Shown piece after piece: positions 14 through 8,558 of a DNA stretch of 64,000 bases; position 1 is the first letter of the stretch; every line of letters starts with the position of its first letter. Where the stretch lies: IMG/VR virus record IMGVR_UViG_3300026097_000008, positions 1-64,000 of that record, one strand, 5' to 3'. The position numbers and the translations under genes are program-made. Source of the DNA: a virus. Under the pieces are notes generated by a model. The model had not been told where the DNA came from. It saw only the letters and a list, made by a program, of their open reading frames with translations, and searched no databases.

Positions 14-26
14 TAAGCTATTGATA
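14..26 (-). promoter_or_regulatory. IHF consensus site
   Basis: Reverse complement TATCAATAGCTTA matches WATCAANNNNTTR exactly. Near-matches at 51-63, 113-125 and 330-342. Confidence 0.65.
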
Positions 27-183: not shown

Positions 184-242
184 TGTGGATAACGTTATAC
201 ACAGTGTAGGTTGTGGATAAACTGTGGATAAACTGTGGATAA
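184..242. promoter_or_regulatory. Cluster of 5 DnaA boxes
   Basis: TGTGGATAA (reverse complement TTATCCACA) at 184-192, 212-220, 223-231 and 234-242, plus TTATACACA at 195-203. The last three have an 11-bp period. Confidence 0.9.
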
Positions 243-275: not shown

Positions 276-303
276 GGTGCGCATAAGACATATTATGTTA
301 AAT
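276..303 (+). other. dif: dif-like XerC/XerD recombination site
   Basis: GGTGCGCATAA-GACATA-TTATGTTAAAT. Both 11-bp arms are identical to E. coli dif; only the 6-bp core differs. Confidence 0.9.
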
Positions 304-351
304 GTGTGTGCGAGGATTTTCCTCAACGTTTTCAAACACTTAGCGGATTGC

Positions 352-399
352 ATTTAACATAATCCCGTGTGTGTGCGCATATAAGTTATTATGTTAAAT
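352..399. other. Second dif-like site (372-399) plus inverted XerD arm (352-362)
   Basis: TGTGCGCATAT-AAGTTA-TTATGTTAAAT (XerC arm 9/11, XerD arm 11/11). ATTTAACATAA at 352-362 is an exact inverted XerD arm. Confidence 0.75.
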
Positions 400-416
400 T
401 GGGGCGAGGGGGCCGC

Positions 417-429
417 TAAGTTGTTGATT
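417..429 (-). promoter_or_regulatory. IHF consensus site
   Basis: Reverse complement AATCAACAACTTA is an exact WATCAANNNNTTR. It lies in an imperfect inverted repeat, 315-346/413-444. Confidence 0.7.
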
Positions 430-567
430 TTGTTGAGGGAAATCGATTTATAACCTCTTGTTTTTGCTAGTGTTCTTTCTGTGCCGTTTGTGCATTTTTT
501 AGTTGACAGCAGCACAAACTTGTAGTATAGTGTATATACAAGCTTAAACAATATAGAGGGCACTACT

Positions 568-7556: not shown

Positions 7557-8558
7557 ATGCAAAACATTAAAATCACAGAAGGGTACTACAAGATTCGAGG
7601 CAAAGACACATCAGTGGCTGGACTTGTGTTTCCCCTAGTAGAAGAATTTAAAGTAGGCAACAAAGGCGGCTATGTCACAGTAGACGGCCGAGCAATTGCA
7701 GGCTTCCCAGACCGTAATATCAAAATCAGTTGCGGTGGCCCGGAGGACTACGAGCTTGTTGGTGCAGACGTATCAGTCAGCCAGCGAGAAGAGACAGACG
7801 AAGAGATCATTGAGCGCCTGCGAGAGCGTTTCGACATGCTAAAGGAAATGACCAAAGCTGTCAAGAAAGGCGATGTGCGAGCGATGATTGTTTCGGGTCC
7901 TCCGGGCGTAGGTAAGAGTCACGGCGTAGAAGAAGTGCTAGACCGCTACAAGATGATGGAGACACTTGGCGGCACCAAGAAGTACGAAGTCGTCAAAGGT
8001 GCTATGAGCCCGATCGGATTGTACGTAAAGCTTTTCAAATATGCAGACAAAGACAATGTATTGGTGTTCGACGACTGTGATTCAATCTTCGACGAGCCGC
8101 TTGCTCTTAATATTTTAAAAGCTGCGCTTGATAGCAAGAAGACACGTACCATTCACTGGAACACAGATTCATTCAAGTTGCGCAACGAAGGAGTGCCAGA
8201 CAGTTTCAAGTTCGAAGGTAGCTGTATCTTTATTACCAACCTGAAGTTTGATAACGTTAAGAGCAAGAAACTACGTGATCACCTTTCAGCACTAGAGAGC
8301 CGTTGTCACTATATGGATCTTACCATTGACACAGAGCACGAGAAGATGCTCAGAATCAAACAGGTGATCCGCGACGGTATGCTAGATACATATGAGTTCG
8401 ATGAAGAACTCAACGAAGAGATTATCGACTTTGTCGATATAAACAAGAAGCGACTGCGTGAGCTGTCATTAAGAACAGTACTTAAGGTCGCCGACTTGGC
8501 CAAAGCTTTTCCCAGCAATTGGGAGGCGATGGCTGAAAACACTGTGATGTCGCGTTAA
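7557..8558 (+). CDS. AAA+ ATPase
   Basis: Walker A GPPGVGKS, Walker B VLVFDDCD, sensor-1 IFITN, ALESR; promoter at 7498; GAGGGC at 7548. Confidence 0.9.
   Translation: MQNIKITEGYYKIRGKDTSVAGLVFPLVEEFKVGNKGGYVTVDGRAIAGFPDRNIKISCGGPEDYELVGADVSVSQREETDEEIIERLRERFDMLKEMTKAVKKGDVRAMIVSGPPGVGKSHGVEEVLDRYKMMETLGGTKKYEVVKGAMSPIGLYVKLFKYADKDNVLVFDDCDSIFDEPLALNILKAALDSKKTRTIHWNTDSFKLRNEGVPDSFKFEGSCIFITNLKFDNVKSKKLRDHLSALESRCHYMDLTIDTEHEKMLRIKQVIRDGMLDTYEFDEELNEEIIDFVDINKKRLRELSLRTVLKVADLAKAFPSNWEAMAENTVMSR

Follow-up and report, generated by a model that had tools for sequence, protein, structure and literature searches.

Why would a large virulent phage keep, just ahead of its first early genes, a compact group of predicted binding sites for proteins that belong to the chromosome cycle of its host? 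The question is raised by a window of 64,000 nucleotides of viral DNA, at one end of which the original prediction had recognised a symmetric element (315-444). In that element an imperfect inverted repeat, with an IHF-like site in each arm, enclosed two inverted XerD arms around one central XerC-like arm. It was proposed that this could be an attachment or resolution site in which one XerC arm serves either XerD arm, or which folds back as a hairpin. Our analysis shows that the cis-element is real and that it belongs to a wider module which appears not to have been described before, and it suggests that this module would be a new variant of Xer exploitation, the purpose of which we infer from its layout and conservation.

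The source phage and the module in the window

The window comprises the first 64 kb of a 154,976-bp IMG/VR virus contig (G000). The completeness of this contig was put at 44% by CheckV, and with 44% corresponding to 155 kb the genome size is estimated at about 350 kb, of virulent type. Encoded on the contig are a tail sheath of 1,130 aa, a large terminase, a DnaB-type helicase, a primase and a split DNA polymerase. The phage had been regarded as a T4-like myophage. However, its nearest cultured relative by the large terminase (TerL) is the jumbo Pseudomonas phage PA5oct, with 54% identity, and the source is an uncultured, PA5oct-like jumbo myophage that is T4-like in a broad sense only. Comparison of the region with 50,697 phage records by megablast and blastn gave no relevant nucleotide match. 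The sequencing runs containing this DNA are from marine and saltern samples and from one 'soil' metagenome. It was found that an integrase (PF00589), FtsK, HU/IHF and the DnaA DNA-binding domain are all missing from G000 and from two related contigs, G001 and G004 (42-73% complete). Since phage-encoded partners are absent from the available parts of these three genomes, the ligands of the sites described below must be host proteins, and with no integrase detected in the phage, recombination would fall to host Xer. As a separate observation, raw counts of the E. coli Chi octamer are 8 for the plus and 2 for the minus strand of G000, and 0 and 1, respectively, for the 262-kb G001.

The 130-bp palindrome of the original prediction is the right half of a larger non-coding module that spans about 14-444 (Table 1) and ends 60 nt ahead of the first early promoter. 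This promoter opens the rightward early-gene block, and wherever the module occurs it precedes this block. The region holds no ORF of note, no Rfam family and no internal promoter, and judged by its motifs the module is composed solely of predicted host-protein sites, namely those of XerC/XerD, IHF and DnaA. The contig start has probably truncated an upstream IHF array, of which the IHF-type site at the left end of the module would be the last unit; in relatives, 3-6 such units occupy about 300 bp ahead of the DnaA boxes. Three of the four exact DnaA boxes stand in tandem at 11-bp spacing, i.e. with 2-bp gaps; four exact boxes compare with 0.63 expected, and none of 100 shuffles reached that number. 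DnaA boxes and IHF site are thus clustered as in an oriC-type origin, and the boxes sit in an untranslated region adjoining early genes as in the iss region of phage T5. Exact XerD arms were found at 293-303 (+), 352-362 (-) and 389-399 (+), all within 110 bp, and no other copy exists in the 154,976-bp contig. Two of them belong to full dif-type sites which are direct repeats 96 bp apart. Site A, of 28 bp, has 0 mismatches in both arms and is the best site of the region, and site C has the full 11+6+11 geometry with 2 mismatches against the canonical arms.

Table 1. Predicted features of the module and the promoter that follows it (window coordinates)
Feature	Position	Strand	Remark
IHF-type site	14..26	-	perfect consensus
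Four exact DnaA boxes	184..242 (starts 184, 212, 223, 234)	-	exact match
Near-consensus DnaA box	195-203	+	
dif site A (type 1)	276..303	+	canonical XerC arm, centre GACATA, canonical XerD arm
Palindrome left arm	315..346	.	contains middle IHF-like site
Middle IHF-like site	330-342	+	12/13 to consensus
Putative lone inverted XerD half-site (B)	352..362	-	exact XerD arm, no usable XerC arm
dif site C (type 2)	372..399	+	XerC arm ending ...CATAT, centre AAGTTA, canonical XerD arm
Palindrome right arm	413..444	.	contains perfect IHF site
IHF site	417-429	-	perfect WATCAANNNNTTR
First strong sigma-70-type early promoter	503..531	+	11 of 12 consensus

The individual elements that had been recognised at first sight were confirmed. 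The inverted repeat is 32 nt long and 78% complementary, far beyond chance, and the segment 315-444 folded as single-stranded DNA gives -26.4 kcal/mol (z = -5.9), a value equalled by none of 200 shuffles. The two inverted XerD arms are exact, an IHF-like site lies in each arm of the palindrome, and the central XerC-like arm is present at 371-382, where it forms part of site C. The sites are, as far as their motifs can tell, genuine XerC/XerD-type and IHF-type sites. It is the interpretation placed on them that has largely not been borne out. A single XerC arm serving either XerD arm finds no support in the XerC side of the inverted arm, which is not conserved in the six lineages that have this arm. 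In the window this side carries 5 mismatches, so that the inverted arm fails the test for a dif site, and its inner XerC positions are the variable outer bases of the XerC arm of site C; the segment is best described as a putative lone XerD half-site. The predicted fold-back hairpin fared no better, as the inner hairpin 345-406 does not exceed shuffled sequences (z = -1.0). Its fold pairs only the XerD arms (12-14 bp), which are separated by a gap of just 26 nt, and leaves the XerC arm in the loop. The original prediction had itself named a lack of conserved symmetry as what would speak against it, and this is what was observed: the outer IHF-bearing palindrome, with its right arm, is common only to the window and its closest relative L138, and elsewhere among the relatives DnaA boxes replace the right arm and the middle IHF site is flipped. 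The palindrome is therefore the layout of one lineage. A deletion between sites A and C had also been envisaged. The joints running from 303 to 373 turned out to be short matches of divergent relatives, and no hybrid of the two sites and no circle junction was present among the joints listed, which are from assembled contigs.

Conservation of the module among relatives

Pattern scans found the same module in four other contigs. G001 is a 261.8-kb contig with the module internal at 61.5 kb, G002 is a near-identical contig of 43.9 kb, and G003 and G004 are 31 kb and 155.5 kb long. These share early genes with the window at 60-88% amino-acid identity. In each of them the module is directly upstream of the rightward early block, and in G001, G003 and G004 it has the same place with respect to homologous early genes; its upstream neighbours in G001 are tail-fibre-like and HNH genes. 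Altogether 41 metagenome loci with the module, on related marine and saltern phage contigs, were reduced to about 27 distinct variants. Nearly all variants combine two direct full dif sites with one to five DnaA boxes and an IHF array of 3-6 sites. In the G004 type there is only one dif, with DnaA boxes converging on it from both sides. A further XerD-arm match at G001:44017 lies in coding sequence and is due to chance.

The dif sites are of two types. Type 1 has the canonical XerC arm and a variable centre, mostly [T/G]G..TA, and the centre of type 2 is AATATA or AAGTTA in 22 of 26 distinct sites. Both types coexist in every two-site module, in an order that can be swapped, and the XerC-side central triplets of paired sites are never identical within one module. 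In an alignment of 56 distinct full sites, for which one site per locus was selected by the search pattern, the core of the XerC arm and the XerD arm are conserved at 90% or more and the central 6 bp and the flanks are variable. Pairwise comparison of flank identity for breakpoints at dif was dominated by noise. An IHF or IHF-like site lies between the two dif sites in every variant, in either orientation, and a 'TTTCAA' variant of this middle site recurs at the same place in about 9 relatives. The 142 IHF-type units collected share the consensus WATCAANNNNTTR and an A/T tract at -14 to -10 but differ at the NNNN positions, and for these reasons they are taken as IHF sites and not as phage-specific iterons.

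In nine inner architectures the two dif sites are separated by 74, 86, 95-96 or 106-107 bp and by no other distance. These values are in phase for a period of 10.4-10.8 bp (R = 0.93; P = 5e-5 against random spacings). We read this as two sites held on one helix face around an IHF bend, an arrangement suggested by the spacings, and the phasing could also partly reflect gain or loss of 11-bp DnaA-box units. The inverted XerD arm has a fixed register as well. Six lineages have it, and in all of them its start precedes that of the type-2 XerD arm by 37 nt; other lineages have a DnaA box in its place or nothing.

The module is sporadic in its distribution. It is present in only 4 of the 26 relatives having at least 5 kb of sequence upstream of the conserved early ATPase gene, four relatives of 237-275 kb have no such site, and PA5oct has no dif-like site. 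One relative, G008, retains only IHF-like sites ahead of the early genes, without dif and DnaA boxes; a degenerate dif match in this contig was rejected, being a promoter. This distribution indicates that the dif/DnaA part is an accessory gain of a subclade and not a core function. The ATPase gene itself (window 7557-8558) encodes a 333-aa AAA-type protein (phrog_1250) and is the most conserved early gene of the clade, with 70-82% identity across 65 viral contigs; searches of the protein family returned nothing informative and no solved relative by sequence. Between the module and the first early gene, two diverged relatives (L014:1522-1547 and L023:7892-7917) share the same 26-nt block, in which a perfect 15-nt palindrome comes after a -35-like hexamer. 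The window lacks this block, which resembles a promoter and its operator.

Assembled contigs extend across the module just as frequently as they stop close to it, and their ends show no side bias. The window contig starts in the upstream IHF array, and L138, an independent metagenome contig from another strain, ends there no more than 4 nt away. Assembly may have broken off at this place in repetitive or hypervariable sequence, or the shared stop may hint at a physical end. From the likely source run, a Logan contig extends 499 nt beyond position 1 of the window.

Possible roles of the module

The arms of site A are identical to what we take to be the XerC and XerD arms of enterobacterial dif, which means that standard E. 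coli XerC, XerD, IHF and DnaA proteins could be used directly with this DNA. The same arms with the centre TGTATA were the commonest form at prophage borders in a pattern scan. Chromosomal-type dif requires activation by FtsK. The KOPS motif was searched for in the phage genomes and 0 were found against about 1.5-3 expected, which is not significant. The module shares with the dif/XerC-XerD/FtsK system of gamma-proteobacteria the 28-bp geometry of 11 + 6 + 11 (PMC5357621). It differs from chromosomal dif in being carried by a virulent-type jumbo phage, in having two direct copies with mutually different, non-canonical centres, in the IHF site between them and the DnaA boxes beside them, and in its lack of KOPS polarity. 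The plasmid sites cer (ColE1) and psi (pSC101) also have a Xer core on an extrachromosomal replicon and about 200-300 bp of accessory DNA on the XerC side. Xer chemistry at cer and psi is FtsK-independent and XerC-first, which would suit a phage. However, their accessory DNA has ArgR/ArcA/PepA sites where the phage has IHF and DnaA sites, and they have one core site where the phage module has two. The centre of cer is 8 bp (PMC5357621).

The reading to which we tentatively give preference, as a possible though not a probable one, is that the module forms an IHF-folded XerCD complex through which host Xer recombines copies of the phage genome, and that it does not serve integration. According to this model host XerC-XerD would bind both dif sites and IHF would sharply bend the 46-79 bp between them. 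The sites, being on the same face, would fold into a compact XerCD-IHF complex with DnaA oligomers alongside on the tandem boxes. As the XerC-side central halves always differ, the two sites could not delete the DNA between them; A x C deletion would be blocked and each site would exchange only with its own copy on another phage DNA. Xer recombination between such copies could close the circle of terminally redundant infecting DNA, interconvert monomers and multimers, or both. DnaA and IHF would be architectural helpers or would allow a host-driven start of replication. The identity, conservation, phasing and position of the sites and the absence of phage-encoded partners are established at the level of sequence, and the folding into a XerCD-IHF complex is what we infer. 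A functional model for this kind of recombination is the loxP-Cre system of P1, in which a tyrosine-recombinase site on a tailed phage circularises terminally redundant DNA and resolves dimers. P1, however, encodes its own recombinase and has a plasmid prophage; here the enzyme would be that of the host, and no lysogenic state is known. In favour of recombination between phage genome copies is a second, unrelated family of tailed phages with a degenerate dif and an inverted XerD arm near terS/terL. Against it, no recombination product was seen among the joints listed, which are joints of contigs only, and a folded complex of A and C could compete with recombination between copies rather than help it. 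The dependence of chromosomal-type dif on FtsK, in genomes where no KOPS was found, and the sporadic occurrence of the module also speak against it. Taken further, a clade of virulent jumbo phages could have recruited chromosome-cycle proteins of the host, so that a XerCD complex pre-assembled on the first-entering DNA joins or closes genomes without a phage recombinase, an extension to which we give a slightly lower probability.

The sites may have another purpose altogether. DnaA is a membrane-associated protein, and DnaA, IHF and XerCD could load on the first-entering DNA without any recombination, in which case the bulky complex would anchor or pause the incoming genome, or insulate or activate the early promoters. 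Such a role has been proposed for the DnaA boxes of T5, and for our module we regard it as somewhat unlikely. It fits a module that contains host-factor sites only and lies always directly upstream of the first early promoter, and the IHF array that occurs alone in G008 suggests that a promoter-proximal architecture may be the older role. T5-like phages have 8 consensus DnaA boxes in an untranslated region by their first-expressed genes, the iss region, for which a membrane-DnaA stop model was put forward (Davison, bioRxiv 10.1101/866236). The T5 boxes lie in pairs within inverted repeats of the left terminal repeat (bioRxiv 10.1101/866236), with 3-bp gaps where the phage boxes are in tandem with 2-bp gaps, and T5 has neither dif nor an IHF array. 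The T5 model is itself a proposal, as is any function of the present module. Simple binding would not call for complete sites of the form XerC + 6 bp + XerD, nor for two stable types whose centres do not match on the XerC side. The near-coincident stops of the window contig and L138 at the IHF array speak for such a role, and the Logan contig which goes past position 1 speaks against it. Titration of host proteins is a further possibility. Multiplying phage genomes could soak up DnaA, IHF and XerCD and so stall initiation and segregation in the host; the clustering of presumably high-affinity consensus sites for three chromosome-cycle proteins and their sporadic, accessory distribution would suit such an add-on for host takeover. 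Helical phasing, fixed registers and a two-type design would not be needed for this, there are just a handful of sites per genome, and phages usually shut off the host with proteins. We regard titration as very unlikely.

The module could also be a minichromosome-like cassette, in which an oriC-type origin of DnaA and IHF sites and a dif for dimer resolution maintain a circular episome in a carrier state or pseudolysogeny, with origin and dif adjoining as they do in replicons that replicate unidirectionally. The combination of IHF sites with DnaA boxes repeated in tandem every 11 bp matches the architecture of an origin, and a 148.8-kb circular viral contig from a bacterial isolate has one dif-like site. 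Origin-type and dif-type elements also lie side by side on a marine replicon, the unidirectionally replicating Pseudoalteromonas chromid with its ori2-dif2, where they are 4-27 kb apart and the origin is of the RepA type (PMC7858055); in the phage the distance is 35-100 bp. Reading of the sequence by eye revealed no clear AT-rich unwinding element or 13-mer beside the boxes, and the GC skew of the 262-kb relative follows the coding strand only. The module is missing in most relatives, so it is not an essential origin of the clade. No copy of it was found in the genomes of 185,579 bacterial species (one each) or in 72,556 plasmids, which gave only generic 30-40-nt Xer-site matches. We consider an episome of this kind unlikely. 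Integration by XerCD at the host dif, as first proposed and possibly by way of a folded hairpin, is less likely still. It would agree with the lack of a phage integrase, many type-1 centres are one step from the common TGTATA, and the known IMEXs (CTXphi, VGJphi, TLCphi and GGI) are integrase-less elements that use host XerCD with a dif-like attP (PMC5357621). CTXphi also has two dif-like sites close together. However, the sites of CTXphi are inverted and pair in single-stranded DNA so that XerC and XerD arms are both in duplex, and the full sites of the phage are direct and its fold pairs XerD arms only, offering no duplex XerC arm. The combined signature of DnaA boxes and a dif junction had 0 matches in one genome from each of 185,579 bacterial species, and so had exact site C; the host may lie outside this set. 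The phage, a tailed one with double-stranded DNA, resembles the IMEXs in that no recombinase of its own was found, and integrated copies at a host dif were not found. The centres vary quickly between close relatives, which is ill suited to matching a conserved host dif, the genome is of virulent type and about 350 kb, and the known IMEXs among phages are filamentous, microvirus or double-jelly-roll phages and none is tailed. The least likely of all is a relic, i.e. an ancestral single phage dif, as in G004, that was hit by a small Xer-mobilised insert which then decayed and has no present function. Single-dif relatives bracketed by DnaA boxes do exist, and insertion at dif yields two direct sites with different centres (PMC5357621). 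A decayed insert is hard to reconcile with arms kept perfectly in about 27 diverged variants while the flanks drift, with a phase kept across different inner contents and with an IHF-type site that is always in the inner segment. GC skew, KOPS, the positions of contig ends and the mapping of assembled contigs do not discriminate between these explanations.

It should be noted here that parts of this picture were known. Dif-like sites on mobile elements (PMC5357621) and DnaA boxes beside the early genes of T5 (bioRxiv 10.1101/866236) have been described, and the hijacking of Xer is known from filamentous, microvirus-like and double-jelly-roll phages and for integration only. The literature searched contained neither a dif-bearing tailed phage nor an example of a Xer site accompanied by IHF and DnaA sites. 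If host Xer does recombine copies of the phage genome, this would be the first use of Xer by tailed double-stranded DNA phages for the lytic cycle and not for integration. Provided that they are active, the sites would give large virulent phages with a new way to handle their genomes with host enzymes alone, and the Xer field with a natural paired-site, IHF-bent substrate. The module also offers an independent counterpart to the DnaA boxes of the T5 injection-stop region, which are themselves unexplained.

Xer-type motifs in other phages

Several other viral contigs with Xer-type motifs were noticed. The second family of marine tailed phages, which is unrelated to the source phage, is represented by L084:188-246 and L094:1156-1214 and also by L092, L097, L098, L105, L108 and L111. 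Its element consists of a degenerate dif-like site and an inverted exact XerD arm, 48 nt apart from start to start, followed by a C-rich tract, and it lies about 250 nt upstream of the genes for the small and large terminase (terS/terL). Cos and pac sites and genome ends usually lie upstream of terminase genes. Small contigs with inverted XerD arms were considered as CTX-type filamentous phages and rejected, as they are fragments of tailed phages and their fold pairs the XerD arms only; they were accordingly left out as comparators for the hairpin.

The circular viral contig from a bacterial isolate, 148,842 bp long, accounts for both L049:290-316 and L072:6638-6664. Its two ends share an overlap of 519 identical bases, which marks it as circular or complete, and the dif-like site, whose XerC arm is canonical and whose centre is not, is inside the overlap. 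This contig may be a phage-plasmid with a Xer resolution site. In L080, L114 and L077, 5-6 exact XerD-arm 11-mers occur within a few hundred bases without XerC arms; these could be XerD half-sites in an array, or a repeat that means something else in those phages. Finally, many viral contigs of about 34-36 kb (L027, L044, L057, L064, L069, L074 and similar ones) have a canonical dif with the centre TGTATA about 1.5 kb from one end, and these may represent a family of temperate phages situated in the host dif or next to it.
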